NCBI GenBank assembly: GCA_023266895.1
Contig: JAHFOI010000001.1
Span: forward strand, 1 to 52,132
Source of the DNA: Candidatus Woesearchaeota archaeon
GTDB lineage: Archaea > Nanobdellota > Nanobdellia > Woesearchaeales > ARS49
DNA length: 52,132 nucleotides
Reading direction: 5' to 3'
Shown one piece after another: positions 3-41,071 of this stretch (position 1 is its first letter; the number at the start of each line of letters is the position of its first letter). A program made the translations under genes and the position numbers. Below the pieces are notes generated by a model that was not told the origin of the DNA, did no database searches, and worked only from the letters and a program-made list of their open reading frames with translations.

Positions 3-2333
3 ACACTTATTGCAAAAACATTTGCCATAGATGCAGGGCAACTTCTTGCGCGAGCAGGAAGTGGTGGATTTGATGGAGTTAATCAAAATTTTGCACCAAG
101 CGGTGGAGCTGGTGTTATAGAACTTAAGCATGCAGGAATTTCTTGTAGTTCTGAGTGCCTTGATGGAATTATTCCAGACTATCAGCCAAGCATTGTATCC
201 GGTGTTAGTTCAGGATGTTGTGGTGCTCAGCATGAATGCATGAATTTTACAAATGCAACCTTGTGCACCCAGGTTAGTAATACAACTTGGCAATGGCTTA
301 CGTTGGACAAGCAGGGGAAAACATTCACAAGTGTGTGTGGTAGTCCAACAGCAATTTTAGTGAGTGATAGATATTATTCGTGTGGTGCCAATGCGTCAGG
401 CACAACCCTCTTGCGCATTGCAAGTGCATCTCAAAGCAACAAAAGTCATGAGTATGCTTGTCGTGATGTGTCTACATCAGGTTCTGCAAGTACACTGGGT
501 ATTGCAGAATGTAGGGGTAATGCTCCTGCATTTAGTGATTCAGCACGGTTTACTTCTGGTGAGAATATCACGCAAGTTCAGGGGTATCCTTCTCAGTCAT
601 TTTATTGTACTGCTGCGAGTCACTGGACTGCAGATTTGGATAATGCAGATCAAGAAACATGCACTCGTGCAGGGTATGTGTGGACTGGAAGCAAGTGTTG
701 TGCTGAGGAGGTCAATGAAACATACAATGAACCAAATATTTTGCCCACAGGTATTCCAAGCTGGCAAAATCCTGTGCGTTCAACAAGTATTGGAAATACC
801 ACACCAATTACTGGTGCATGTTGGGAGTCACAATATGTTGCACTTGGCCAATACGTGCTACGTAAAAATAACACGCCAACAGCTCAAGCATCTCTTCGTA
901 AGACAATTATTAATTATCAGGGAATGTTTTACAATTGTAATGAAGAAAATCGTAGCCTTCTTGGCACGCGTGACACACATACAGGTCAGGTTGTTGTGCA
1001 GGAATTAGGGCAGGCGTGTGCAGTGCTTGCAAATGCGCGTCCTGGAGCAGAGCAGCCTCATGCATTTTGCACATCTGAAGGGTGGTTGTTTGATAGTGAG
1101 TTGCGAAATTCTCGTACAACAATTGCATGGCAAGTGCCTGAAGTTATTCCTCAAGGATTTAGTGTGGGAGGCTGTTGTGGCGCGACAAGTTGCTGGAATG
1201 GGACAGGTTGTGTTCAAGATCAGGCAGGTCAGTCAAGTACACTGAATACCTATCCTGGTAATAGGCGTTGTATTCATGGTCAGTGGGTTGTGCAGGAACC
1301 AAAAATAAGTTTTAATGGTAATGGTCAAGGTTTTTGTCCAGAACCAACACAGTGTCTTGCAGATCCGTTAGGTAATCCTGCAAAGAATGGTAATGTTCAA
1401 CAGCTTGCAAGCATGCGTAGTCAGGATCGTCCTCAATGTTTGAATGCAAGTCAATACTTTTTGGACAATTTTTGCAAGCAAGGTAATTGGACATCACGCA
1501 CGCGTTTGCTTGCAACACAATTGCTTAGTCATGCATTACAGACAAGTCCTACAAACTATACCTTGTATTGTGACACGCCACAGCGCATAATTCCATGGCT
1601 TGATGATGTGCCTGTTGTGCAGGCATATTTTGCTGTGCCTTGTGCAAATGCTGATTCGTGCTCAAATAATTTGTGTGTGCTTATGACTGCTTCAGGAATT
1701 GGGGTAGGTACAACACTTAATAGTTTAGATCAAGATCCAGGGCTTGCGCTTCAAGGATTTATGAATGCACTTGGCAGTACTGGAGCACAATGCGTGGTTT
1801 CTGAGTTTTCAGGGCAAAATTTTGTGTCATGTGGTGAAGGAATCTGGTACAGTAAGGGTTTGAATGCAGTTGTGTATTTACCTAAAGAAAATTTCAGGCC
1901 TTTTGATGGAAGTGCAGGTGAAGTTCTAACAAATGCATTGCAACCCATTGTGCTAAGTGCGCAAGCGCATACCACAACTCTTCATCCTTTTGATAAACTG
2001 TATGCAACAACTAGGATGATGAATTCCTTGTACATTGCTCAGCATGAGCGTGGATTTTTGTTAAGTTTTGTTGAGCCAATGCAACGCAGGCCTGCAGGTA
2101 CTGGGGTGTTTCAAGACTGGCTTGGGGTGTATGCAAAAGGAATTGCACACTCTGCTTGTGCAGAACAACCTCTGGGCAGCATACGACAATATGATCCTCA
2201 GGCAGTCTGTACATATGATCCTTTGACACAGACAACAATTATTCTCAGAAGTCAGCAAGCGCAACCTCTGGATGCAACACCGAGCCCGCTGATTAAGGAG
2301 TACTCTAACATTGCAGGAAAACTACGCCCATGA
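3..2333 (+). CDS. Cys-rich, N-glycosylation-sequon-rich surface protein, 5'-truncated by window edge
   Basis: The reading frame is open from nt 3 with no stop before the first ATG (240), so the gene begins upstream of the window. Many Cys and N-x-S/T sites, no TM helix. The stop overlaps the next start as ATGA (2330-2333). Confidence 0.6.
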   Translation, partial: TLIAKTFAIDAGQLLARAGSGGFDGVNQNFAPSGGAGVIELKHAGISCSSECLDGIIPDYQPSIVSGVSSGCCGAQHECMNFTNATLCTQVSNTTWQWLTLDKQGKTFTSVCGSPTAILVSDRYYSCGANASGTTLLRIASASQSNKSHEYACRDVSTSGSASTLGIAECRGNAPAFSDSARFTSGENITQVQGYPSQSFYCTAASHWTADLDNADQETCTRAGYVWTGSKCCAEEVNETYNEPNILPTGIPSWQNPVRSTSIGNTTPITGACWESQYVALGQYVLRKNNTPTAQASLRKTIINYQGMFYNCNEENRSLLGTRDTHTGQVVVQELGQACAVLANARPGAEQPHAFCTSEGWLFDSELRNSRTTIAWQVPEVIPQGFSVGGCCGATSCWNGTGCVQDQAGQSSTLNTYPGNRRCIHGQWVVQEPKISFNGNGQGFCPEPTQCLADPLGNPAKNGNVQQLASMRSQDRPQCLNASQYFLDNFCKQGNWTSRTRLLATQLLSHALQTSPTNYTLYCDTPQRIIPWLDDVPVVQAYFAVPCANADSCSNNLCVLMTASGIGVGTTLNSLDQDPGLALQGFMNALGSTGAQCVVSEFSGQNFVSCGEGIWYSKGLNAVVYLPKENFRPFDGSAGEVLTNALQPIVLSAQAHTTTLHPFDKLYATTRMMNSLYIAQHERGFLLSFVEPMQRRPAGTGVFQDWLGVYAKGIAHSACAEQPLGSIRQYDPQAVCTYDPLTQTTIILRSQQAQPLDATPSPLIKEYSNIAGKLRP

Positions 2334-8613: not shown

Positions 8614-9221
8614 GCAAGAAGATGAAGCATGGTACGGCACTGCACAAGAAAGTGTTACAAGCTACCGAAAGTTCTCGTACGTGTGTTCTTGCCCAAAAGT
8701 ATGTCATGCCTGCAAAGGTGCATGCACAAATTATAGGTCAGGTATTTGTATTTATTATTGCAGGACTCGTGTTTGTACTCATACTTACGTATGGCTATAC
8801 TGCAATCACGAAGTTATTAGAAACAAAAAAAAGTGTTGATGTTATAGAGTTTAAAACTAGTCTTGAGCAAAACATTGCTGCAATACGCACGAGCACAGGA
8901 AGCGTGCGTAAAGTGGTTTTGTCTGTTCCTTCAGAGTATATTGAATTTTGTGCAGTAGATCCTCTAATGACGCAGGCGCATAGTAAAGAGTTTAAAAAAA
9001 ACCACCCGCTTTTTTTTAATGCATGGCGGTCAGATCCTACACTCACAGTGTTCCTTCAACCATTGCTTGAAACACCGATTAAACTGCCAGACATTGCAGT
9101 CAACGGGCCATTATTTGACGAGCCGGGTTTTTTTTGCATTCCAGTCAGTAATGGAAGACTTGTGCTTAGCATGCAGGGCACGGGCACGCATGCGCAACTT
9201 CTTCCGTGGGTGGAGTCATGA
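8610..9221 (+). CDS. Pilin-like membrane-anchored protein
   Basis: Contains ...VHAQ/IIGQVFVFIIAGLVFVLILTYG. ATGA overlap with the giant gene. An internal ATG at 8706 would give a short MPAKVHAQ leader instead. Confidence 0.45.
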   Translation: MSKKMKHGTALHKKVLQATESSRTCVLAQKYVMPAKVHAQIIGQVFVFIIAGLVFVLILTYGYTAITKLLETKKSVDVIEFKTSLEQNIAAIRTSTGSVRKVVLSVPSEYIEFCAVDPLMTQAHSKEFKKNHPLFFNAWRSDPTLTVFLQPLLETPIKLPDIAVNGPLFDEPGFFCIPVSNGRLVLSMQGTGTHAQLLPWVES

Positions 9222-10297
9222 AAAAACTTCCTTCCAAAACCGTGCGTGGGTTCTGGTCAAGAAAGGCATTTGAAGTGCAGTTTCACTGGATTTTTATCAT
9301 GATTGCAGGAGCAATTATTCTTACGTTTTTCATTACTGTTGTCACAAAGTATCAGTCGGTTAGTGAAGAACGTTTTTCTCTTGTGTTGAGTAAGCAATTG
9401 GAAACAATTCTTTCTGGTGCGAGTATTGCAAAGCAAACCACACAGCACATACAGCTTCCACTTCCTCTGAAAACCTCTTGTACAGAAACGTGTGCGTGCA
9501 GTTTTAGTACAGGAACAAAAGTAACTCAGCTTAAAGGAACATCTCTTTTTAGTCCGTCAGTTCTTGCTGGAAAAGAGCTCATATACACAACCCATGATTG
9601 GAATATTCCTTTTCGTGCAGGAGTGTTTGTGTATCTTACTGATGACCAACAGCAATATGCACTCGTGTATGATCCTGGTGACAGCGCAAGCACTGCGTTA
9701 CTCACAAAAATAACACAGCAATTGCCGCAGGAATTGAGCGTAAAAAACATAAGCATAACTCTGCTGTCATCAATTGTGCTGCAGCAAGAAAACAAAAAAA
9801 TTCATTTGATTTTCCTTAACACACTGCCAGATGCATTCGCATTGCGTAACGCGCAGGAAAATTCTGGCGTAATTATAACAGTGATCACTGCAGCTGGAGG
9901 TGTGCAGTTTTATGCACGAAATACAGTGCAAGAATCAAACAATGTTCAGATAGCGCAGGTTCCTATTGCAAGTACCTGGACTAGTGATGCTGAATTGGTT
10001 GGTGCAATTTTTAGTGACACGCAGCGTAGTTATGCCTGCAATTTGAGGCAAGCATATGCTCGTGCACAATGGATTGTGCAAGTTCAGAATAAACGTCTTG
10101 ATGCATTGCAGTCACGTTGTTCAACTACCAAAATTAAAGAAACACTTGCTGAATTTGAGAAAACAATGAAAGTCCTCTCGCAGGAAATAGGAACTCAAGG
10201 TGAAGCGCCAGCAGTACTTACATTGCGAGCACTCCAGCATGATCTTGCGCAGGAAAATCAGCAGCTTGCCAAAGCAAACTGTCCAACAATATACTAA
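9218..10297 (+). CDS. Pilin-like membrane-anchored protein
   Basis: ATG 9218 forms ATGA with the upstream stop (track start 9206 is GTG). N-terminus MKKLPSKTVRGFWSRKAFEVQ/FHWIFIMIAGAIILTFFITVV. Confidence 0.45.
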   Translation: MKKLPSKTVRGFWSRKAFEVQFHWIFIMIAGAIILTFFITVVTKYQSVSEERFSLVLSKQLETILSGASIAKQTTQHIQLPLPLKTSCTETCACSFSTGTKVTQLKGTSLFSPSVLAGKELIYTTHDWNIPFRAGVFVYLTDDQQQYALVYDPGDSASTALLTKITQQLPQELSVKNISITLLSSIVLQQENKKIHLIFLNTLPDAFALRNAQENSGVIITVITAAGGVQFYARNTVQESNNVQIAQVPIASTWTSDAELVGAIFSDTQRSYACNLRQAYARAQWIVQVQNKRLDALQSRCSTTKIKETLAEFEKTMKVLSQEIGTQGEAPAVLTLRALQHDLAQENQQLAKANCPTIY

Positions 10298-28439: not shown

Positions 28440-28748
28440 CTATTTTTGTTTTTTCTTTTTTTCTCGAGCGCTTCCTGGGGGTCCTGAGAACCAGTCTTCG
28501 TAGGTTTTGATTTTTCTGTGGGGTGGTCCTGAAAACCAGTCTTCAAAGGTTTTTATCTTGCGATGTGCAGGTCCTGCAAAGCCATATGCAAGTTCGTGGT
28601 TTTTGTGTGCTCTTGTTTTGCGGGTAATTCTTTGAAAAAGTATGTTGCGTATGAGTTGTGGCACTGATTCGTTATTAGTGTGTGCTTCGTGTTGGAGTTG
28701 TACGAAAAGCTTTTGAGTTACGCGAACAAGTATTCCTGGGCTTACCAT
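28440..28748 (-). CDS. Ribbon-helix-helix (CopG-like) protein with C-terminal 15-aa tandem repeats
   Basis: ATG 28748 has tttttata 22-29 nt upstream. ILVRVTQKLFVQLQHEAHTNNESVPQLIRNIL fits a beta-alpha-alpha RHH fold. C-terminal repeats are GPAHRKIKTFEDWFS / GPPHRKIKTYEDWFS / GPPGS. Confidence 0.5.
   Translation of the reverse strand: MVSPGILVRVTQKLFVQLQHEAHTNNESVPQLIRNILFQRITRKTRAHKNHELAYGFAGPAHRKIKTFEDWFSGPPHRKIKTYEDWFSGPPGSAREKKKKQK
28480..28583. repeat. Imperfect 45-nt tandem repeat (about 2.3 copies) encoding the RHH protein tail
   Basis: ggtcctga.aaccagtcttc... units start at 28480, 28525 and 28570. Confidence 0.75.
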
Positions 28749-28889
28749 GCAATAAGTGTGTGGTTTGGCTATAAAAACCTTTTGAACGAGTGTGATATCA
28801 GCTGATATCAGACAGCGACGAGAATTATGAACCAATAGTCTTTTTAAGTGTTCTACCTTTTGTTCTGAGTGCCCGTTGTTGTTGTGTGT

Positions 28890-29093: not shown

Positions 29094-30860
29094 ATGCCGA
29101 GAATTGCGATTATTCAAAAAGATAAGTGTAATCCTGTGGGTTGTGGTAATTACTTGTGTGCACGATTGTGTCCTGTGAATCGTGAAGGGCAGGAATGCAT
29201 TTCTGTTGGTCCGGATAAGAAGGCGTTTATTAATGAACAATTATGTACTGGTTGTGGTATTTGCCCGAATCGTTGTCCTTTTGGTGCGATTAGTATTATT
29301 AATCTTCCTGAACAATTGGACAAGCCTGTGCACAGGTATGGTCGTAATGGTTTTCATTTGTATAATCTTCCGATTCCGGTGTTTGGTAAGGTGGTTGGTA
29401 TTGTTGGCAGAAATGGTATTGGCAAATCAACAGCGATAAAGATTTTGGCGGGCACGCTTATTCCTAATTTGGGTGCTGATGAAAATTCTGATTCTGCGGT
29501 CAAGCACGGTGGATTTTCTGCTGAGCTTATCAAGCGTTTTCGTGGTAGTGAGGCGCAGGCATATTTTGATCGCTTGAAAAAAGGCTTGCGTGTGAGCAGT
29601 AAGCCTCAACAGGTTGATTTGATTCCGAGGACAACAACTGGTACAGTGAAAAGTTTGCTTGAAAATGTTGATGAGAAAAAAGCGCTCAAGCATGTTGTTA
29701 CAGCTCTTGATTTGCAACAGGTTTTGAACAGCAAGATTGAAACATTGTCTGGTGGTGAGCTTCAGCGTGTTGCTATTGCAGCCACTGCGCTTAAGCAGGC
29801 TGAGGTGTACTTTTTTGATGAGCCTACGAGCTTTTTGGATATGAAGCAGCGTCTTCGTGTTGCATCATTTATTCGTTCTCTTGTTTCACCATCGACGGCG
29901 GTGCTTGTGGTTGAGCATGACTTGATTATGCTTGATGCCATGACTGATTTAGTGCACGTGATGTATGGGAAAGAGCAATGTTATGGTGTGGTTGCGTTGC
30001 CAAAGTCAAGCAAGGAAGGCATTAACACGTATCTTGAAGGTTTTCTTCGTGAGGAAAACATGCGTTTTCGTGATAAAGTAATTAGTTTTTTGTCGCGTGT
30101 TGATCGTGGTCCTAAAAAAACTCCTCCTGTTGTGGAGTGGTCTGGTGTGCAAAAAAAACTGGGGGTGTTTCATCTTTCTGCAAAGTCTGGTGTGTTGCGT
30201 CAGGATGAGGTGATTGGTGTTGTTGGAGAAAATGGAGTGGGGAAAACTAGTTTTGTAAAGCTTTTGGCAGGTGTGGAATCTCTTGATGCAGGCACCATTC
30301 CTTTTTCTGCAAAAGTGAGTTATAAACCTCAGTATTTGGAAGCAAGTTCTGTGCTTGTGGCAACTGTGCTTGAGCGTGCGCTTGAGCGTTTTGAGGTGCA
30401 GCTTATTCGTCCTTTGGAACTCAAGGGTTTGTTGACCAGAAAGCTTGATGAATTGTCTGGTGGTGAGCTTCAGCGTGTTGCTATTGCGCGTTGTTTGAGT
30501 CAGGATGCTGAGCTTTTTTTGCTTGATGAGCCAAGTGCGTATTTGGATATTGAGCAGCGTTTGGCGCTTTCAAGAATCTTGCGTGATTTTGCATCTCAAA
30601 ATTCAAAGACTGTGCTGGTGGTTGATCATGATTTGTTGTTTGTTGATTATATTGCTGATGAGTTATTGGTTTTTTCTGGTATGCCAAGTCGTGAAGGTGA
30701 AGTTCTTGGTCCAATGCGTGTTGAAGATGGTATGAACAGGTTTTTGCAAGACTTGCATATCACGTTTAGAAAAGATGCTGAGTCTGGTCGTCCACGTGCA
30801 AACAAGCCTGGCAGTGTGCTTGAGCGTGAGCAATTGGCTGAAGGAAAATTGTATGGCTAG
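29094..30860 (+). CDS. abce1: ABCE1 / RNase L inhibitor, ribosome recycling ATPase
   Basis: N-terminal 2x[4Fe-4S] Cys clusters (CNPVGCGNYLCARLCP, CTGCGICPNRCP). Two NBDs with GRNGIGKST and GENGVGKTS, and LSGGELQRVAIA twice. Confidence 0.95.
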   Translation: MPRIAIIQKDKCNPVGCGNYLCARLCPVNREGQECISVGPDKKAFINEQLCTGCGICPNRCPFGAISIINLPEQLDKPVHRYGRNGFHLYNLPIPVFGKVVGIVGRNGIGKSTAIKILAGTLIPNLGADENSDSAVKHGGFSAELIKRFRGSEAQAYFDRLKKGLRVSSKPQQVDLIPRTTTGTVKSLLENVDEKKALKHVVTALDLQQVLNSKIETLSGGELQRVAIAATALKQAEVYFFDEPTSFLDMKQRLRVASFIRSLVSPSTAVLVVEHDLIMLDAMTDLVHVMYGKEQCYGVVALPKSSKEGINTYLEGFLREENMRFRDKVISFLSRVDRGPKKTPPVVEWSGVQKKLGVFHLSAKSGVLRQDEVIGVVGENGVGKTSFVKLLAGVESLDAGTIPFSAKVSYKPQYLEASSVLVATVLERALERFEVQLIRPLELKGLLTRKLDELSGGELQRVAIARCLSQDAELFLLDEPSAYLDIEQRLALSRILRDFASQNSKTVLVVDHDLLFVDYIADELLVFSGMPSREGEVLGPMRVEDGMNRFLQDLHITFRKDAESGRPRANKPGSVLEREQLAEGKLYG

Positions 30861-33741: not shown

Positions 33742-33814
33742 AGCGGAGGGAGGGACTCGAACCCCCGGATAAACGCTCTGCAGGCGTTCCCCTTAGCCGC
33801 TTGGGTACCTCCGC
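33742..33814 (-). tRNA. tRNA-Cys (GCA)
   Basis: 73-nt cloverleaf. Acceptor GCGGAGG/CCTCCGC, anticodon stem AACGC/GCGTT, loop CTGCAGA, T-arm GGGGG-TTCGAGT-CCCTC. Discriminator is U, which is the Cys identity base. Confidence 0.8.
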
Positions 33815-33913: not shown

Positions 33914-34009
33914 GGGCCTGTAGCTCAGCTTGGATAGAGCGACAGCCTTCTACTGAGCGTGTGCTCATAAGATAGCTGAAGGTCGTGGGTTCAAATCCCA
34001 TCAGGCCCG
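33914..34009 (+). tRNA. tRNA-Arg (TCT) with 21-nt intron after position 37
   Basis: Acceptor GGGCCTG/CAGGCCC, D-arm GCTC..GAGC, anticodon loop C-T-TCT-A, T-arm GTGGG-TTCAAAT-CCCAT. 75 nt of exon plus the intron. Confidence 0.85.
33953..33973 (+). other. tRNA intron (canonical 37/38 position)
   Basis: ctgagcgtgtgctcataagat contains a 5-bp hairpin, TGAGC-gtgt-GCTCA. Confidence 0.7.
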
Positions 34010-34639: not shown

Positions 34640-34708
34640 GCAGTACGTTCAATAGTATCGAACTGATGCAAACGTAGATTTATAATTAACTGTGCGATTT
34701 TCATAAAT

Positions 34709-35242
34709 ATGACTGATCTGACTCGTTTAAGTGAAAAAGTATCAATTGCGGTGTCTGAAAAAGCATTTGTTGCGTCTCACACTCGTCGCGTTTTTTCTCT
34801 TGGTGAGGGACTTTGTGCAACGCTTTATGAAAATCAAGGCGCGGCAGATTTTTTCCATGGGCAACTCAAAAAACTTCATGCAGCAGTGAGAGTTCCTGAA
34901 CCAAAAGTGCTTGTACCTTTTGTGTTTTTTGGTGAGAAAAAGTATGCTCCTGTTATGGAGTATATTTCCGGCCTAACACTTGGCGAGTATGTTGCTGGTA
35001 AAAAGAGGCTTCCTCTTCCTGTTTGGCAGCAACTTGCTGAAGGTATTGATAAACTAAAAAATGCAGGTTTTGTCATTATTGATAATGCGCTGAATAGAAA
35101 TGTGTTGGTTTCTGAGGGGGCTTTATTTTTTGTTGATCCTGAAGCATATAAGTCTTCTGCGCAGCTATCCTGGTTTGCACGTTGCTGGTATTGTGCAAGA
35201 ACGGCTGTTGAACGTTCCTACTATCATGCCTTAGTTAAGTAG
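34709..35242 (+). CDS. Small atypical protein-kinase-like fold protein
   Basis: Hinge-like VMEYISG, then FVIIDNALNRNVLV and FFVDPE. tttataat lies 23-30 nt upstream of the ATG. Confidence 0.3.
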   Translation: MTDLTRLSEKVSIAVSEKAFVASHTRRVFSLGEGLCATLYENQGAADFFHGQLKKLHAAVRVPEPKVLVPFVFFGEKKYAPVMEYISGLTLGEYVAGKKRLPLPVWQQLAEGIDKLKNAGFVIIDNALNRNVLVSEGALFFVDPEAYKSSAQLSWFARCWYCARTAVERSYYHALVK

Positions 35243-35350: not shown

Positions 35351-36490
35351 TCACACCACCCACTGATTTTTAAGCAGTAACTTTGATGTTTTGTACAATT
35401 CTTCTTTGAATTTGTGATAGTGTTTTTTTGGCACACTGGCTCCTGCTGCAGGTATGTGACCTCCGCCTCGTGCTCCGGATATGTTTTTGATTGCACAGGT
35501 GAGAAGTTCATTTGTGGCAATTTTGCTGTCATTGCGTCGTGCACTAATACAGATTGGATCTTGTGAGCTATCCACAATAATGACTGTTTTGTGTGCATGC
35601 TTGTGGCCTAGTATTGTGCTGAGGGTGCCTGTTATTCTATATGATGGCTTCATTTCATAGAGATAAATGCCATCTTTTTGTTTGACAGTGGCAAATTGGT
35701 GTATGTGTTTTTTGATTTCTTTCTCTACTGCACTTCTATATTTTTTGAGCGTGCTTGCATTGAATTCTTTCCATGTTTTTGCAGAGAGTAATTCATCATA
35801 GCATCTTGCGGTGTATTTTTTATTGAAACAAAGTGCGAGTGAAATTGTGGAAGGTACTTTTCCCAGTTCTGTGTCAAACCAGTTTTTCTTTGAGAGGATA
35901 CGTAATCTTTTGAGCAATGCAGTTAGGTATGTACTCCACTGCATAAATCCTGAGTCCCCTATGAGTCCTGCGCCAGCAATCCACTCAAGATCTCGTAGGT
36001 CACAAATGCGTGAGCCTAAATCATATGCCATTTTTGCAGTTGCATAATATGCAGGATTTGGTTCTTTCCAAATAAGTTGTGGTTTGATGAGTAGTACTTT
36101 TTTGTTTTTTGGCGTACTAAGAATTTTGTGATGATCGATTATGATTATGTGCGCAAACTGTGCTGCTTGATTAAGTGTTTGTGTATTTTCTTCAACAGGC
36201 AAATCTGCAGTAATAATGTGTGTGATCTTGTTTTTTTTCAGCTGAGTTATCATGTCTGGACTTATGTTGTGATTTCCATCTTCTCGCGCGAGTCTGAGGT
36301 CTACTGTTTTTCCGCGTATTCGCTCAATGAGTCGCGTAAGAATTGCTGCAGCGCATATTCCATCAGGATCTGCATCGTGAATAATTGCGATGCGGTCTTT
36401 TGTGTTCATTGCCCTCATTCGCATATCCCATGCGTGTAGTAGCGCTGGATTGAGAGGGGTCCACTTTTTCGGCAAAGGTAAGGTTTCCAT
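35351..36490 (-). CDS. DHH/DHHA1 family phosphoesterase (NrnA/RecJ-like)
   Basis: Motifs HDADPDG, ITADL, IIIDHH, GDSG and DHHA1 GGGHIPAAGA. Starts 5 nt after the upstream gene's stop. Confidence 0.8.
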   Translation of the reverse strand: METLPLPKKWTPLNPALLHAWDMRMRAMNTKDRIAIIHDADPDGICAAAILTRLIERIRGKTVDLRLAREDGNHNISPDMITQLKKNKITHIITADLPVEENTQTLNQAAQFAHIIIIDHHKILSTPKNKKVLLIKPQLIWKEPNPAYYATAKMAYDLGSRICDLRDLEWIAGAGLIGDSGFMQWSTYLTALLKRLRILSKKNWFDTELGKVPSTISLALCFNKKYTARCYDELLSAKTWKEFNASTLKKYRSAVEKEIKKHIHQFATVKQKDGIYLYEMKPSYRITGTLSTILGHKHAHKTVIIVDSSQDPICISARRNDSKIATNELLTCAIKNISGARGGGHIPAAGASVPKKHYHKFKEELYKTSKLLLKNQWVV

Positions 36491-36495
36491 GGTAT

Positions 36496-37371
36496 TTATG
36501 CAGCGAGTTTTCTCGTTGTTACTCCTTGTTTAGTATTTTTTGAAATATCACGTATTTCTCTCTCAAAGCATTGTAAAACTCCTTCAAGACTTTGGACTGA
36601 AGGTTCATGAGTTATGATTACTGCACCAACAGCGTCATATCCTTTTTCTCCAGAAATTGTTGGGAATAACGCAGAGAAAGTGAGCTCTTGTATTGCATGA
36701 GTCATACATTCTTGAATAACCCCTGGTGATATGCCGTACGTTACGACAGCAACATCAGGAGTGTTTTCTTTATCCGCGCGTAATTTCGCCATGACAATTG
36801 TACCTGTGATTGATTCAATTGATTTAGAAATAGCATCTATTCCTGTTGTAATCGCGTTTTCTTTTGCTTTTGAACCATATTGGTCTGCAACTATTTGTGA
36901 GCTCAAACTAACTAATACCAGATTTACAGGGTTGCATGTTTGTTCACTTGAGTGCACAAAGTATCTCAGCAGCATATTTGCTTCTTCGGCTCCAAACTGC
37001 ATTTTAGCTTTTTTGTTAGCAGTAGCAAGGCGAGTTACACTAGTCATATTTCCTCGGATACGTTCATATACTTCTGGTGCGTCAGGAGGCAAATCACTTC
37101 TTTTTGCCATTTGTAAAACCTGTTTCGCAGTTTTTGTTGCTTTATTAGAAGACATGCCTCTTGTCAAAGAAGTGCATATTAGTGCGTATGCTGCAAATAC
37201 CTCTTCTGCAGTAAATGTTTTTTGAGGCCAGGCATGTTGTCTTTCTGGCGTCTCAATTCCTTGGTATCTTCGTGGCTCATGAGGACACTCAGTGCCAATG
37301 TATGCTTCAGGAACAACCGGTTCTGGTCTACTCTGTTGTTCATGTCCTGAATAAATTGTTAATTGGCTCAT
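36496..37371 (-). CDS. Orphan 291-aa protein between the GGDEF and DHH genes
   Basis: ATG is preceded by GAGGA. No motif recognised, and no PilZ RxxxR/DxSxxG pair seen. Confidence 0.6.
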   Translation of the reverse strand: MSQLTIYSGHEQQSRPEPVVPEAYIGTECPHEPRRYQGIETPERQHAWPQKTFTAEEVFAAYALICTSLTRGMSSNKATKTAKQVLQMAKRSDLPPDAPEVYERIRGNMTSVTRLATANKKAKMQFGAEEANMLLRYFVHSSEQTCNPVNLVLVSLSSQIVADQYGSKAKENAITTGIDAISKSIESITGTIVMAKLRADKENTPDVAVVTYGISPGVIQECMTHAIQELTFSALFPTISGEKGYDAVGAVIITHEPSVQSLEGVLQCFEREIRDISKNTKQGVTTRKLAA

Positions 37372-37450
37372 GTTTTTCCTCGTTTTTTCTTTGTTTTTTC
37401 TTCAGAACATGCTGGTGTGCATGACTGAATACTGATCATACTCAGTCAAA

Positions 37451-37500
37451 TATATTTATAACGTACTTCTTGAACGACAAATACGTTAAATACGTTATCT
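37451..37500. promoter_or_regulatory. Conserved 50-nt control element, copy A (TATA-like + TACGTTA heptamers)
   Basis: 39/50 ungapped identity with 38601-38650. Contains TAACGTA (37459-37465) and two direct ATACGTTA (37481-37488, 37490-37497). Confidence 0.6.
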
Positions 37501-37522
37501 TTGTTTTATATTTATTTTCGCG

Positions 37523-38461
37523 CTACCGTTGTGTGTAACATTGCCCGACCGCACCCATGATACCTGCAGCGTATGCTGCGGCTTGTGAAACAAATGCAAG
37601 CATTCTTCTACCATAATTTCGCAGTGGTTTCATTGTTTCTTGTGTTCTGCCCTGCATTTTTAGCATGCGTAATGCGTCAGCATAGTTGTCAAGAGGCGTT
37701 CTTGGATCAAGAGTAACTACTCTTGGAATTATTCTTATTCCTTGTTTCGCACCTATTTTTGCAGCATACATATTGGTATCAGCACATGCCTTCAATTTTG
37801 CAAATATTTCTGGGTCTGCTGCGCAATTACCAGCGTAGTGCACTGCTCCAACATCGTATGCAACAGTAATTATCTGCTCTCCTGTACGTACAGGTATTTT
37901 TTCTCCTGCATGAATTAGTCGCTCTTCAATCGCGCGTGCAATGTCAAGGCTAAGTTCTTTTCCTGGCTCTCCTTTTTCTATGACCGTAAATTCATCTCCT
38001 CCTGGTCTGTAAACTCCAGTACCAGTACGTGTTGCACTTACAAGTGTTTTTGCAATTGCTTGAAGAGCTCTATCTCCAGTAGGGTGACCATACTGGTCAT
38101 TTACCTGCTTGAAATCTCTAACGTCAACGTATGCAATTAAACAAGGAATTCCTTCTCGCACAGCAGTTTCTAAATCTGCATCAAATTTTCTTCTATTGTA
38201 TACTCCTGTTAATGCATCTCGTGTTGCAATTTCTTCGGCTCGCTCAAGCAGTCTGGCTTTTGAGCTTATTACGCGATCTGCCCTTCTGATTTTTTGGCCT
38301 TGTTCTGCGCAGTATTGTGCGATTTTCAGGATTGCCCTTCCAGGATCTTCTCCCAGAATTTCTAAAACTTGTAAGCGAAGATTTGGTGGCATTCCACTTG
38401 TTTCAAGTAAACTTTCAATGTTGGGAATGTCTTGTGACTGTATGTCTGTTTGAACTGGCAT
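37523..38461 (-). CDS. GGDEF-domain diguanylate cyclase-like protein
   Basis: Motifs RDALTGVYNRRKF, VDVRDFKQVNDQYGHPTGDRAL and GGDEF (37988-38002). GAGGTGA Shine-Dalgarno-like motif before the ATG. Confidence 0.85.
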   Translation of the reverse strand: MPVQTDIQSQDIPNIESLLETSGMPPNLRLQVLEILGEDPGRAILKIAQYCAEQGQKIRRADRVISSKARLLERAEEIATRDALTGVYNRRKFDADLETAVREGIPCLIAYVDVRDFKQVNDQYGHPTGDRALQAIAKTLVSATRTGTGVYRPGGDEFTVIEKGEPGKELSLDIARAIEERLIHAGEKIPVRTGEQIITVAYDVGAVHYAGNCAADPEIFAKLKACADTNMYAAKIGAKQGIRIIPRVVTLDPRTPLDNYADALRMLKMQGRTQETMKPLRNYGRRMLAFVSQAAAYAAGIMGAVGQCYTQR

Positions 38462-38600
38462 GTCTTCACCTCATTTTTTTGTTTGTTGTTCTTTTTTTTC
38501 AGTCTTGGTGTGACTTTTTTGTAATTGTAAGGCCAAAACCCGCATTTCTGCAGGGTTAAGGTCTGGTTGTTGTCATGAAGTTAGTATTCCAAAAGATTAA

Positions 38601-38650
38601 TATATATGTAACGTACTTTCTATACGAAAAATACGTTTCATACGTTAATT
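38601..38650. promoter_or_regulatory. Conserved 50-nt control element, copy B, in the divergent GGDEF / AbrB-PhoU intergenic region
   Basis: tatatatgTAACGTActttctatacgaaaaATACGTTtcATACGTTAatt, ending 11 nt before ATG 38661. Confidence 0.6.
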
Positions 38651-38660
38651 TTGGCAACCC

Positions 38661-39593
38661 ATGACTTCCATACGAAAACTCGTCAAAGCAGGCCCTGCAT
38701 CACACACCATTTCACTGCCTAAAGAGTGGCTTGAACAGCATGGTGTGAAGACTGGAGATTCATTGTATGTAGAAGAAACTCCTGACACGTTGGTTGTGAA
38801 AACAGAATCAAGAAAAGTGCAGGTTGTTGAGCAGGAGTGTACCATTGCTTTGGACAACAAATCAGATTCTTCAGTCCAACGCGAGCTTGCTTCAGCATAT
38901 GTTAACAACAATCGGACCATTCGTTTTTCAGGAAAATCAGCTGAGTCTCGCTTGCCTGTAGTGAGAGCTATGCTTCAAGGTTTTGTTGCATTGGAAATTA
39001 CTGAGCAAACCCCCACGGTCTTGGTTGTCCGTGACTTGTTAGATTTGGAAGAGATAAGTGTGGAAAAAACAATTCGGAGAATGGAAATGATGGTACGTAC
39101 CATGCTTGTAGAGTGCTGCAATCCTGATGTGCAAGAGCAGTTACGTGTGAAAGATGAAGAAGTCAATAAGCTTTATTTTCTGCTTGTGCGTCTGATACGT
39201 AGCGCGTTATCAGTGCCTGGCATGGCAGAACGTTTTTCTCTCACACCAGTCAAGGCAGGGCAGGTATGGTTTTTAATCACCTATCTGGAAAGTCTTGCGG
39301 ATTATGCCCAGTCAGTGCACGGTTCTTTTGCACGAACACCAAAAGCAAGCATAAAAATGGTAAAAGAGCTTGTTGCTGAGCTCAAGATAGTGTTTGAAAA
39401 GGCAATGACCAGTTTTTGGAAAAAAGAAAAATCAAGCGCAGATGGAGTGCTTCAATCAAGACAGTCATTGCTTGCGTCATGCACAACAATTTCTGAACAT
39501 CACAAAGATGCAGTGCTTGCAGAAATTGCTGAGCAGGCAAAGGCAATTGTTTCGCTCATCCTCAGCATTGCACGACTGGTTATTGATGAATAA
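38661..39593 (+). CDS. AbrB/SpoVT-domain + PhoU-like regulator
   Basis: N-terminus RKLVKAGPASHTISLPKEWLEQHGVKTGDSLYV is a swapped-hairpin AbrB-type motif. It is followed by a helical PhoU-like repeat region. Confidence 0.7.
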   Translation: MTSIRKLVKAGPASHTISLPKEWLEQHGVKTGDSLYVEETPDTLVVKTESRKVQVVEQECTIALDNKSDSSVQRELASAYVNNNRTIRFSGKSAESRLPVVRAMLQGFVALEITEQTPTVLVVRDLLDLEEISVEKTIRRMEMMVRTMLVECCNPDVQEQLRVKDEEVNKLYFLLVRLIRSALSVPGMAERFSLTPVKAGQVWFLITYLESLADYAQSVHGSFARTPKASIKMVKELVAELKIVFEKAMTSFWKKEKSSADGVLQSRQSLLASCTTISEHHKDAVLAEIAEQAKAIVSLILSIARLVIDE

Positions 39594-39688
39594 AGAATAA
39601 CAATGTAAAGAATAGCAACGCGAAAGAGCAGAAACCAACATCAAAAATAGAAACTGAAAAAAAGAAACACTGACTTACGACTGACTTT

Positions 39689-40063
39689 TTAATTCTTTTT
39701 TCTCATGCGTTCAAATGTTTCAGGAATGTCAATGATGTATTTGCCATCAGCCAGTTTGAAAATAAGTGGTTCTTTTTTGAACAAGTGAACAAGATCAATT
39801 TCATATTTTCCGGGTTTTATGATATTAATACTTTCTAAATCGAGCACAACTGGTGCAGCAGGATTTTCTGTGCCAAGAATATCATACACATCACTTTCTA
39901 GTTCTTGTTTTGCTTCAGTGCTGAGCGTTACGGTAGTCTGTTGCTTGTTGAGTTTTTCTTTCTTGATGTAGAAAAACAAACGCGCACCGCACGTGCAACC
40001 GCTCAGAATTTCTTTTGCGCCATCATCATACATGGCATCACAGCGCACACACTGATGTGGCAT
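39689..40063 (-). CDS. Zn-ribbon protein (archaeal COG3364-like)
   Basis: CVRCDAMY...CTCGA zinc ribbon. Last gene of the GTPase/DUF2073 triad. Confidence 0.6.
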   Translation of the reverse strand: MPHQCVRCDAMYDDGAKEILSGCTCGARLFFYIKKEKLNKQQTTVTLSTEAKQELESDVYDILGTENPAAPVVLDLESINIIKPGKYEIDLVHLFKKEPLIFKLADGKYIIDIPETFERMRKKN

Positions 40064-40064
40064 G

Positions 40065-40439
40065 TTATTTCCTTCGCTCTCTCGTGAGAAGCTCTATTTT
40101 GTTTGGATCTTTTCGTATGCTTTTCACAACACTTGCCGGACCAATAATTGTCAAGCCTGCTTTTTCTCCCAGCATAAGACTTACCACACCATTTTTTATT
40201 CTGCTGAGCCCGCTTGTGTTCGGGTTTGTTGGCTGAATCACTGCAAGTTCTATGCCTTTAAATTCTTTGTTTATCTCTTCCATTGTTGATTTGATGAGTT
40301 CTGCTTCTTCTTGCTTGCGTAATCTTCCTTGAAGCAGTACTATTTTATTTTCTTTTGCGAGGTTGAGCAGTTTTCGTATGCGTCCGAGACTGCTGAGCTC
40401 TAGGATTTCATGGTAAGGAACAACACGCAGTGTTACCAT
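40065..40439 (-). CDS. DUF2073-like protein
   Basis: Position within, and similarity to, the conserved archaeal GTPase-DUF2073-Zn-ribbon operon (from memory of the family). Confidence 0.5.
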   Translation of the reverse strand: MVTLRVVPYHEILELSSLGRIRKLLNLAKENKIVLLQGRLRKQEEAELIKSTMEEINKEFKGIELAVIQPTNPNTSGLSRIKNGVVSLMLGEKAGLTIIGPASVVKSIRKDPNKIELLTRERRK

Positions 40440-40441
40440 TG

Positions 40442-41071
40442 CTATCCTCCTGTGAGTTTGAACAAGGCGCTATAAAAAGCGTCCGTGTGCTTGCCATACT
40501 TTGCGCTTACACCCACTACTTCATACTGAGGGAATGCTGATTTGATGCGTTTCATGCTTGCTTTTTTCAGGTCTACTTTGTTTGCAACAAGTAAGACTGG
40601 TATGTCTCGTGCTGCGAGATTGCCAATAATCGTAACATTGACTTGACTGTAGGGATCTTGTGTTGCGTCAAGCACGACGAGAACAGTGTCCACTTCATCT
40701 AGCCATTTAATGCTGTCAATAACTCCTTTTGTTGCTTCTTTGGCGCGTCGTTTTGCTTTTGATTCAGCAAGTCCTGCGCGCATAAAATCTTCATAATCTA
40801 TTTTTGTGGCTATGCCTGGTGTGTCAACAAGATTAAAAAGAAGTTCTTTATCTCCATTTTTGATGCAGATTTGTTCTTTAATATGCACTTCTCTGGTTTC
40901 ATGAGGTATAGGGCTCACGCTACCCATTTCCTCGCCAAGCCAATCAACGCAAATTCTATTTGCAAGGGTTGTCTTGCCTGAGTTTGGCGGTCCATATAGT
41001 CCAAGCTTTACGCTTCCTCGCTTGCCAAAAAGTGAGCGGAAGACTTTGTTAAAGAATCGTGTTATTCCCAT
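40442..41071 (-). CDS. Small GTP-binding protein
   Basis: G1 GPPNSGKTT, G3 DTPG, G4 NKVD. Confidence 0.8.
   Translation of the reverse strand: MGITRFFNKVFRSLFGKRGSVKLGLYGPPNSGKTTLANRICVDWLGEEMGSVSPIPHETREVHIKEQICIKNGDKELLFNLVDTPGIATKIDYEDFMRAGLAESKAKRRAKEATKGVIDSIKWLDEVDTVLVVLDATQDPYSQVNVTIIGNLAARDIPVLLVANKVDLKKASMKRIKSAFPQYEVVGVSAKYGKHTDAFYSALFKLTGG

Follow-up and report, generated by a model that had tools for sequence, protein, structure and literature searches.

Introduction

Regulators of the AbrB/SpoVT/MazE type (swapped-hairpin), such as abrB of Bacillus subtilis, have autoregulated promoters, and the operator of MraZ consists of three direct repeats one helical turn apart before mraZ. 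In the Thermococcales, the effect of TrmBL1, SurR and Tgr depends on operator position: an operator downstream of the TATA box represses, and one upstream of the transcription factor B recognition element (BRE) and TATA box can activate; SurR, in addition, occupies intergenic regions between divergent genes, and its own gene is among its targets. Here, we analyze a stretch of 52,132 nt from a Candidatus Woesearchaeota archaeon (contig JAHFOI010000001.1 of assembly GCA_023266895.1, positions 1 to 52,132 of the forward strand; hereafter “the window”), in which a control element of about 50 nt occurs twice: once in front of a gene for a regulator with AbrB and PhoU domains (AbrB-PhoU; copy B), and once behind the neighboring GGDEF-domain gene (copy A).

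This locus resembles each of these systems in part. As in AbrB-type autoregulation, the regulator carries an N-terminal AbrB/MazE domain, the candidate sites overlap its own promoter, and negative autoregulation is expected. Unlike AbrB systems, which have sigma-70 promoters, the locus has an archaeal TATA promoter that includes a BRE-like stretch, and this promoter is predicted to be bidirectional; moreover, the operator forms a sharply defined palindrome whose arms stand 22 bp apart, where AbrB sites are loosely defined, and the regulator has a C-terminal PhoU sensor domain. With MraZ, the locus shares short repeats ~9–10 bp apart between the promoter and the regulator’s own gene, and a candidate binder from the AbrB-like superfamily that is probably oligomeric, but one of the sites is inverted here (giving a palindrome and a half-site), the motif is RTACGT and not TGGGN, and the setting is archaeal. 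As with TrmBL1, SurR and Tgr, a single operator lies downstream of the TATA box for one direction and upstream for the other; those proteins, however, are winged-helix regulators with other motifs, and a single TATA box apparently serves both directions here. The PhoU fold and the direct heptamer repeats roughly one helical turn apart also recall the bacterial Pho box and PhoU, although bacterial PhoU lacks a DNA-binding domain, PhoB is the protein that binds Pho boxes, and no pst genes adjoin the locus in the window. A Pho box was considered and rejected, being made of CTGTCAT direct repeats with an 11-bp period, versus RTACGTT at 9 bp with one inverted site here.

Because its motif, its PhoU-fused regulator and its apparently shared, bidirectional TATA box differ, the element is a member of none of the AbrB, TrmBL1/SurR, MraZ or Pho box systems. 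The general kind, i.e., a promoter combined with an operator, is well known, while this particular cassette, the depth of its conservation in DPANN archaea and its pattern of duplication appear to be undescribed: in the papers found, the SpoVT/AbrB-PhoU family figures only in lists (e.g., TK2245), with no operator, binding site or regulon described. Overall, we consider it probable that each copy combines an archaeal core promoter with the operator of a transcription factor, acts in both directions and is governed by AbrB-PhoU. The anatomy and history of the cassette come from sequence comparison; the plus direction, the minus direction and the signal are inferred.

Results

Two copies of a probable promoter-operator cassette

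A preliminary description of the window had aligned two 50-nt frames (37451–37500 and 38601–38650) without gaps at 39 of 50 positions. A recount agrees, and the ungapped match widens to 55 nt (37449–37503 versus 38599–38653) at 80% identity. The constituent parts listed there are likewise in place, namely a TATA-like A/T block in each copy (37449–37458 and 38597–38606), TAACGTA (37459–37465 and 38609–38615) and, 15 nt past the latter, paired direct ATACGTT(A) repeats with starts at 37481/37490 and 38631/38640, i.e., 9 nt from start to start. Gene coordinates also bear out the layout given for them, with copy B in the divergent region between the GGDEF and AbrB-PhoU genes and copy A upstream of a unit made of an orphan gene and a DHH phosphoesterase gene. 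With ≤2 mismatches, ATACGTTNNATACGTTA matches only two sites in the window, one in each copy, where 0.05 would be expected per 52 kb, and 0 of 100 shuffles produced two matches. Five of the six TACGTTA heptamers in the window fall inside the copies, and a 51-nt position weight matrix found no third copy there, as had been claimed. In the related locus L001, alignment identified a left-flank sequence, TGCTGKTGTGCATGAC, that is common to window copy A and to both copies of L001; since this homology runs leftwards past the repeat, the duplicated unit is longer than 55 nt.

Across relatives, the cassette has a fixed order: a purine-rich BRE-like stretch, TTWATATATA, N3, AACGTAC (site 1), N14, RTACGTT (site 2), N2 and RTACRTW (site 3). 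The consensus of 50 distinct instances is cAAAaGA-TTtATATATac-nT-AaCGTACtTAc-n-atA-nnnn-aa-n-TACGtTtagTA-nn-Ta; in most lineages, GGTGA and the start codon come next. The TATA box is invariant across these 50 instances and resembles the boxes of leaderless genes in the window, while site 3 is the least conserved of the three sites (consensus RTAYRTAC; degenerate in L001 copy B, GTCCTTA). Copy A retains the TATA block and the operator and has lost the purine-rich stretch (CAGTC in place of AAAGA); L001 copy A likewise lacks it (CCTTC); in B-type copies, cAAAaGA precedes the box. On the minus-strand side, site 1 (GTACGTTA) holds the BRE position and is not BRE-like. The heptamers that the preliminary description had taken for the element are therefore real, but the element appears to be the whole core promoter, probably bidirectional, plus an operator, and not the heptamers alone.

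Conservation at AbrB-PhoU loci

To place the cassette in a wider context, we compared it with loci collected in three ways. Six loci (L001, L004, L005, L006, L008 and L009) were retrieved through the AbrB-PhoU protein, blind to the motif, and in all six the cassette closely precedes the regulator gene, its spacing unchanged. Their proteins are 82% (L004), 76% (L001), 51% (L009), 50% (L006 and L008) and 45% (L005) identical to that of the window, and the spacing stays constant even among AbrB-PhoU proteins at 35–50% identity.

One genome per species was then scanned at the DNA level for the pattern TAACGTACTT-N12-RTACGTT (17 specified bases), yielding 38 matches. All 12 archaeal loci with a TATA context carry an AbrB-PhoU gene, 36–41% identical to the window’s. 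In most of them the match lies directly upstream of this gene, and in L011, L041 and L042 it lies ~180–900 nt away. These 12 loci derive from Woesearchaeota, Nanoarchaeia and Aenigmatarchaeota, along with some bins labelled Methanosarcinales. The remaining matches are scattered (mostly bacterial, plus five archaeal ones lacking TATA context) and about as numerous as expected by chance. Per contig, the exact motif was found once, including in contigs of 697 kb (behind L044) and 969 kb.

Finally, an alignment of AbrB-PhoU, again blind to the motif, provided 80 metagenomic loci, 78 of them with enough upstream DNA, and 40 of these 78 scored ≥15 bits within 120 nt of the start codon. Many low-scoring loci show a variant with shorter spacing, TTTATATATACTTATGGTAC-N6-GTACG-N3-GTACG, and a Shine-Dalgarno motif after it, and a distant AbrB-PhoU clade (25–35% identical, with neither DHH nor Oap neighbors) has unrelated upstream DNA. 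Among syntenic orthologues, the TATA box is found in 51 of 55, and GTAC occurs 1.75 times per 98 nt upstream versus 0.20 in the background; the corresponding values for non-syntenic paralogues are 0.27 and 0.17.

Comparative genomics, the sole line of evidence on this point, thus supports the earlier proposal of a cis-regulatory element tied to the neighboring AbrB-PhoU gene. The motif is not the common dispersed repeat that the preliminary description had listed among the findings that would refute this proposal, given that archaeal TATA-context matches all lie at AbrB-PhoU loci; a dispersed repeat or miniature mobile element was also rejected on copy number (two in 52 kb here, two in 21 kb of L001) and for lack of terminal inverted repeats. 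The wider regulon anticipated by the same description did not emerge from the scan of species-representative genomes, where every archaeal TATA-context match sat at an AbrB-PhoU locus, and relaxed palindrome and tandem searches of the window and L001 returned chance-level weak matches only. The nearest of these weak matches (GTACGTT at 34643 and AACGTAG-N14-GTGCGAT at 34671, beside a TATA box; 3 mismatches, chance level) belong to a set of weak half-sites at 34643–34698, upstream of a 177-aa gene at 34709(+).

Symmetry of the putative operator and predicted rightward transcription

Although the three heptamers are present as described, dyad analysis indicates that they are better read as a palindrome, AACGTA-N16-TACGTT, with one extra half-site. 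Each of the six arm positions is complementary in 42–53 of 53 instances, the arms of L008 form a perfect 8-nt inverted repeat, and the ACGT centers are 22 bp and 9 bp apart. Since this degree of complementarity is about what independent columns would give, the arms behave as a conserved protein-type palindrome, not as RNA-type covariation. A hairpin or other structured RNA encoded by the 50-nt repeat was rejected on the same ground, the arms being conserved without covarying and the predicted transcript start falling between them.

This start was predicted from the organism’s own genes. Most window genes lack a Shine-Dalgarno motif and carry a TTTATAA or TTTAAAA box that starts 31–33 nt before the ATG (e.g., upstream of 14377(+), 29094(+), 34709(+), 41833(+), 43104(+), 24178(-) and 25452(-)), which suggests that mRNAs in this organism are mainly leaderless. 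Used as a ruler, the 31–33 nt distance places the plus-strand start ~31 nt after the first T of the box, between the arms, i.e., at ~38628 ± 3 for copy B. This puts site 1 past the TATA box but upstream of the start, and sites 2 and 3 immediately downstream of the start. With site 1 being the inverted partner of site 2, the core would be a palindromic operator straddling the predicted AbrB-PhoU transcript start. Positions between the TATA box and the start, or just after, are classic for archaeal repressors that block polymerase recruitment. The plus-side arrangement is a repressor geometry around a predicted start, and the autorepression-like layout suggested previously (repeats between the TATA box and the start codon) holds up, again on comparative genomic grounds only.

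Predicted leftward transcription, leaders and a structured RNA

Both minus-strand genes had been credited with long leaders and GAGG-type motifs, which we found as GAGG at 37381–37378(-) and GAGGTG at 38472–38467(-); two long leaders are unusual here because most window genes look leaderless. In most lineages, an ATG occurs 21–25 nt left of the TATA start, which corresponds to the leaderless distance from the far edge of the box. In some lineages this ATG begins a conserved 10-codon mini open reading frame (mini-ORF), MNN(N/T)(T/S)LGTR(V/A)*, in others MNKT*, and in L011, L006 and L042 copy 2 it opens a full-length gene. The minus-strand transcript predicted from copy B, starting at 38576, would have a 115-nt leader ahead of the GGDEF start codon. 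For copy A, the left flank, which stands equally far from its TATA box, is homologous to that of L001 copy B by alignment, and the start position at copy A is uncertain because its ATG is not conserved in L001 copy A. Window leaders fold weakly (z-scores of −1.7 to −1.8). Separately, L001 (~9832–9927(-)) and L004 (~487–577(-)) have a leaderless upstream ORF of 30–31 codons (MTTTNHSWS...) from the predicted divergent start. Its end overlaps the GGDEF start codon (ATGA, TAATG), suggesting translational coupling in these two loci, and the window version is cut to 6 codons.

For the minus strand, the preliminary description had drawn an activator-like geometry with the heptamers upstream of the TATA block. 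Their position and transcription on this side are supported by comparative genomics, and activation is one of two possible outcomes: with the operator covering the minus-side BRE position, a bound regulator could either recruit transcription factor B (TFB), leading to activation, or block it, leading to repression.

In 28 AbrB-PhoU loci, the leftward ATG coincides with the 5′ end of a structured RNA of ~150 nt (R1) that in every case begins ~22 nt from the TATA box and is encoded opposite to AbrB-PhoU. The 5′ segment of R1, AUGAACAACAA, pairs with UUGUUGUUCAU ~130 nt downstream. Double (compensatory) changes affect 24 of 34 pairs, and 92% of cells are paired versus 30–40% in slid controls, in an alignment that was fitted to the model. 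Compared to Rfam, R1 from five loci had no match at E-values up to 1, and ten loci gave none at the gathering score. Downstream of R1 comes DHH, sometimes with a short GGDEF gene between, and R1 is a candidate for a new riboswitch or leader RNA. A search with the R1 model found none in the window, L001 or L004, whose leaders all fold weakly.

Duplication of the cassette

The usual layout in relatives is DHH(-), R1(-), one cassette, AbrB-PhoU(+) and OapC-B-A(-). Three separate lineages (window/L001, L035 and L042/L083) have instead a copy(+), an inserted gene(-) and a second copy(+) leading into AbrB-PhoU. The inserted genes are unrelated: GGDEF in window/L001, a CYTH gene in L035, and a gene of unknown function in L042/L083, the L042 version being related to neither the orphan nor the GGDEF gene of the window. 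In each double-cassette lineage the distal copy faces the DHH side; in L001 it lies at 8711–8768, again upstream of the orphan-DHH unit, and in L035 and L042 it lies ~0.9–1 kb upstream. In L042, the R1 left flank is retained at the distal copy, as are traces of the Shine-Dalgarno motif and initial codons of AbrB-PhoU. Within the window/L001 lineage, the TATA block and three sites of copy A are intact in both loci, although GGDEF is only 39% and the orphan 34% identical between them. As a side observation, these two genes (L001 8806–9879 and 7782–8642) evolve faster than their neighbors, DHH, AbrB-PhoU, OapA/B/C and the RFC large subunit being 62–90% identical between the window and L001.

Judging from these comparisons, the cassette of the window lineage was duplicated when a gene was inserted, such that the DHH unit keeps its own copy. 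Distal copies are kept at the DHH side, and copy A retains its TATA block and sites without the BRE-like stretch, which suggests that the leftward unit needs a cassette. The earlier idea that both minus-strand units depend on a copy is likewise favored by comparative genomics, as other lineages independently keep a second copy before the DHH unit.

Copy A could alternatively act mainly in the plus direction, as an antisense promoter controlled by AbrB-PhoU that down-regulates GGDEF, which is not exclusive of the bidirectional cassette; antisense transcription from copy A into GGDEF had already been raised in the preliminary description. It shares the orientation of copy B along with a TATA box and operator, and the distal copy of L042 similarly points into the inserted gene. 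Still, neither A copy has the orienting BRE-like stretch, what the A and B copies have in common is the left flank (i.e., the minus-strand leader), and the distal copies of relatives always face the DHH unit on the minus side. We therefore regard a mainly antisense copy A as rather unlikely.

The presumed binder and remaining alternatives

Under the bidirectional cassette model, AbrB-PhoU is most likely the protein that binds the operator. Its sequence matches MazE_antitoxin/AbrB (PF04014) at 32.9 bits (cut-off 24.7) and PhoU at 21.0 bits, below the cut-off of 23.5, and in an AlphaFold model (predicted local distance difference test score 90.4) the C-terminal ~200 aa match PhoU structures 4q25 and 1t72 with probability 1.0. 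Residues ~58–125 of the same model resemble Alba-type folds (3wbm_B and 1udv; probability 0.96–0.98, E-values 0.7–0.8), and a 91%-identical AbrB-PhoU fragment exists (P0125). Because the motif occurs only at the AbrB-PhoU locus and tracks its orthologue group, autoregulation has a comparative argument behind it.

The promoter-operator could also be just as described and be bound by another factor, e.g., a global regulator encoded elsewhere, with AbrB-PhoU merely a target. This would fit with AbrB-type domains usually being thought loosely specific, while the operator here is a sharp 6-bp palindrome. A global regulator, however, would be expected to have sites elsewhere, and the exact archaeal motif is confined to AbrB-PhoU loci in the genome scan, appearing once in the entire 697-kb contig of L044, and tracks syntenic orthologues, not paralogues. 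On balance, another binder seems unlikely.

Less probable again, and by our estimate quite improbable, is that no regulator is involved, so that the conserved bases are core-promoter, initiator and 5′ untranslated region (5′ UTR) signals of the AbrB-PhoU mRNA and copy A is a decaying by-product of duplication. Sites 2 and 3 would indeed fall in the AbrB-PhoU 5′ UTR, and copy A is devoid of the BRE-like stretch. But copy A has no plus-strand gene to serve, and still its three sites are perfect in two genomes whose flanking proteins are 34–39% identical; other lineages also keep distal copies; the organism’s remaining promoters have no such sequence after the TATA box; and the dyad has no obvious 5′ UTR role, because the predicted start lies between its arms. 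Finally, the suggestion that the copies are recombination or insertion scars without regulatory role, i.e., direct repeats bracketing exactly one gene (a 1150-bp unit) as a mobile GGDEF cassette might, GGDEF being rare in archaea, can be given very little credence, since the sequence is single-copy in most relatives, where it is the conserved AbrB-PhoU promoter, no terminal inverted repeats, transposase or integrase accompany it, L008 has GGDEF in the same place with one copy, and no deletion joint of the unit was seen in DNA contigs of four runs, in which depth was low and contigs show presence only.

Gene neighborhood

The cassette lies within a conserved neighborhood (35351–41071 in the window) of DHH/DHHA1, often GGDEF, AbrB-PhoU, OapC-OapB-GTPase and often the RFC large subunit, found in loci including L001, L008, L019, L021, L029, L031, L032, L035 and L044 (Table 1). 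DHH/DHHA1 is the conserved divergent partner and neighbors AbrB-PhoU in most loci; in relatives, it is probably co-transcribed with GGDEF genes. Its best matches are RecJ_archaeal (83.8 bits, cut-off 360) and GAN, both below cut-offs, with PDB entries 5x4h and 5ghr. In sequence terms it is closest to archaeal RecJ/GAN nucleases and not to known cyclic-dinucleotide phosphodiesterases, so that gene linkage is what would make it a partner in cyclic di-GMP (c-di-GMP) metabolism. For the orphan protein, Pfam and NCBIfam gave no match and no family was found, and it has only 3 relatives among 1.84 billion representative proteins (its positional orthologue in L001 is 34% identical). Among 5.8 billion proteins, the GGDEF protein had a single close homologue. 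Archaea are said to lack GGDEF genes almost entirely (PMC10086821), and the presence of such genes in a conserved archaeal neighborhood suggests that they are a recurrent native gene of these archaea.

Table 1 Features of the two cassettes, the surrounding genes and examples of R1
Feature	Coordinates	Strand	Remarks
DHH/DHHA1 phosphoesterase gene, 379 aa	35351–36490	-	Pfam; second gene of the copy-A unit
Orphan gene, 291 aa	36496–37371	-	First gene of the copy-A unit; Shine-Dalgarno GAGG
Copy A left flank	37402..37426	-	Reads GTCATGCACACCAGCA; possible leaderless mini-ORF MHTSMF* from ATG 37422
Copy A, second cassette	37447..37503	+	20 nt past the GGDEF stop codon, 76 nt before the orphan start codon
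Copy A TATA block	37448–37459	+	AAATATATTTAT
Copy A site 1	37460..37466	+	AACGTAC
Copy A site 2	37481..37487	+	ATACGTT
Copy A site 3	37490..37497	+	ATACGTTA
GGDEF-domain gene, 312 aa	37523–38461	-	PF00990 95.6 bits; TIGR00254; motif intact, RPGGDEF; exactly between copies A and B; Shine-Dalgarno GAGGTG
Predicted minus-strand transcript start, copy B	38556..38576	-	Begins ATGACAACAACC; leaderless 6-codon mini-ORF MTTTRP*
Copy B, complete promoter-operator cassette	38590..38653	+	Divergent region GGDEF/AbrB-PhoU; same cassette precedes AbrB-PhoU orthologues
Copy B BRE-like stretch	38590–38595	+	AAAAGA; purine-rich, before the TATA box
Copy B TATA box	38597–38606	+	TTAATATATA
Copy B site 1	38610..38616	+	AACGTAC; palindrome left arm, site 2 inverted; follows the TATA box and precedes the predicted plus-strand start; from the minus strand, BRE position
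Copy B site 2	38631..38637	+	ATACGTT; palindrome right arm, just past the predicted plus start
Copy B site 3	38640..38647	+	ATACGTTA; additional half-site, 9 nt past site 2
AbrB-PhoU regulator gene, 310 aa	38661–39593	+	Pfam
OapC gene	39689–40063	-	
OapB gene	40065–40439	-	
GTPase gene (OapA position)	40442–41071	-	
R1 in L067	1358–1511	-	
R1 in L078	1264–1417	-	
R1 in L032	5839–5992	+	
R1 in L019	3525–3677	+	
R1 in L042	215–359	-	

Archaeal markers in the window comprise an intron-containing tRNA, ABCE1/RLI, the RFC large subunit and OapA/B/C homologues, homologues bear source names that indicate Woesearchaeota, and the runs that contain the window sequence are groundwater metagenomes. A 96-nt Rfam tRNA match at 33914–34009(+), missed by ARAGORN, is probably an intron-containing archaeal tRNA and adjoins a tRNA-Cys at 33742–33814(-); beyond these two tRNAs, Rfam recognized no RNA family in the window. 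A replication origin with origin recognition box (ORB) repeats was considered because of the adjoining OapA/B/C genes and rejected, as the AAA+ gene close by encodes the RFC large subunit (344 bits, cut-off 280); no Orc1/Cdc6 gene was found near the element, and the AbrB-PhoU start codon is what the motif follows throughout. The window’s remaining repeats are duplications inside coding sequence and unrelated to the cassette: the two ABC domains of ABCE1/RLI (29724–29852 versus 30432–30560) and a 45-nt tandem at 28477–28566, inside an ORF at 28440–28835(-).

Discussion

In the model that we favor, the AbrB-PhoU transcript would start between the palindrome arms, and protein bound to the operator would block RNA polymerase. 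An AbrB-PhoU oligomer is the most likely binder, which would result in negative autoregulation. The near-palindromic TATA box would also fire leftwards, with a start ~21–25 nt left of the box, and for this direction the operator would precede the TATA box and occupy the BRE position. Most relatives have a single cassette between AbrB-PhoU and a leftward unit of structured RNA, sometimes GGDEF, and DHH. In the window lineage, the cassette and part of its left flank were duplicated, which would leave GGDEF driven by copy B and the orphan-DHH unit by copy A. The signal is presumably sensed by the PhoU domain, and a phosphate or nucleotide-related ligand is possible.

Several observations weigh against parts of this model. 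First, co-occurrence of the motif and the AbrB-PhoU gene is no proof that this protein is the binder, and about half of the 78 metagenomic loci fall below the score with the standard matrix. On the plus side, the AbrB-PhoU gene of the window, L001 and L004 lacks the Shine-Dalgarno motif of other lineages, and the AT-rich stretch separating sites 1 and 2 could itself serve as a second TATA box, giving a leaderless transcript and a shifted geometry. On the minus side there is no recognizable BRE, so that the case for leftward firing from the shared TATA box is the conserved distance alone; this distance is ambiguous in window copy A, and the distal copy of L035 has a degenerate TATA box. Lastly, nothing from the locus appeared in three metatranscriptomes of the same study, apart from spurious partial matches, and all start sites given here are accordingly predictions.

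Given the genes that surround it, the cassette may also be the control hub of an archaeal cyclic-dinucleotide (c-di-GMP-like) module, comprising AbrB-PhoU, a GGDEF cyclase, a DHH/DHHA1 phosphodiesterase and, at the head of the leftward transcript in most lineages, R1 as a nucleotide-sensing, riboswitch-like RNA. We put this forward tentatively, as a possibility well short of likely. If true, the module would be conserved in Woesearchaeota and related DPANN archaea, with one bidirectional promoter governing the regulator and the enzymes.

Taken together, these results provide a first candidate operator for AbrB-PhoU regulators, which are common in archaea, along with a testable model of their autoregulation. 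The cassette comes from DPANN archaea, which are not growable alone and in which gene regulation is almost unstudied, and a single near-palindromic TATA box seems to serve two directions in it, with one operator downstream for one and upstream for the other. For archaeal GGDEF genes, the locus offers a native neighborhood, with a DHH phosphoesterase and an archaeal promoter, and in relatives they stand behind a covarying RNA that has no Rfam family. This surrounding module, i.e., an archaeal GGDEF with DHH and, in relatives, a new structured RNA, is the more surprising part of the finding.

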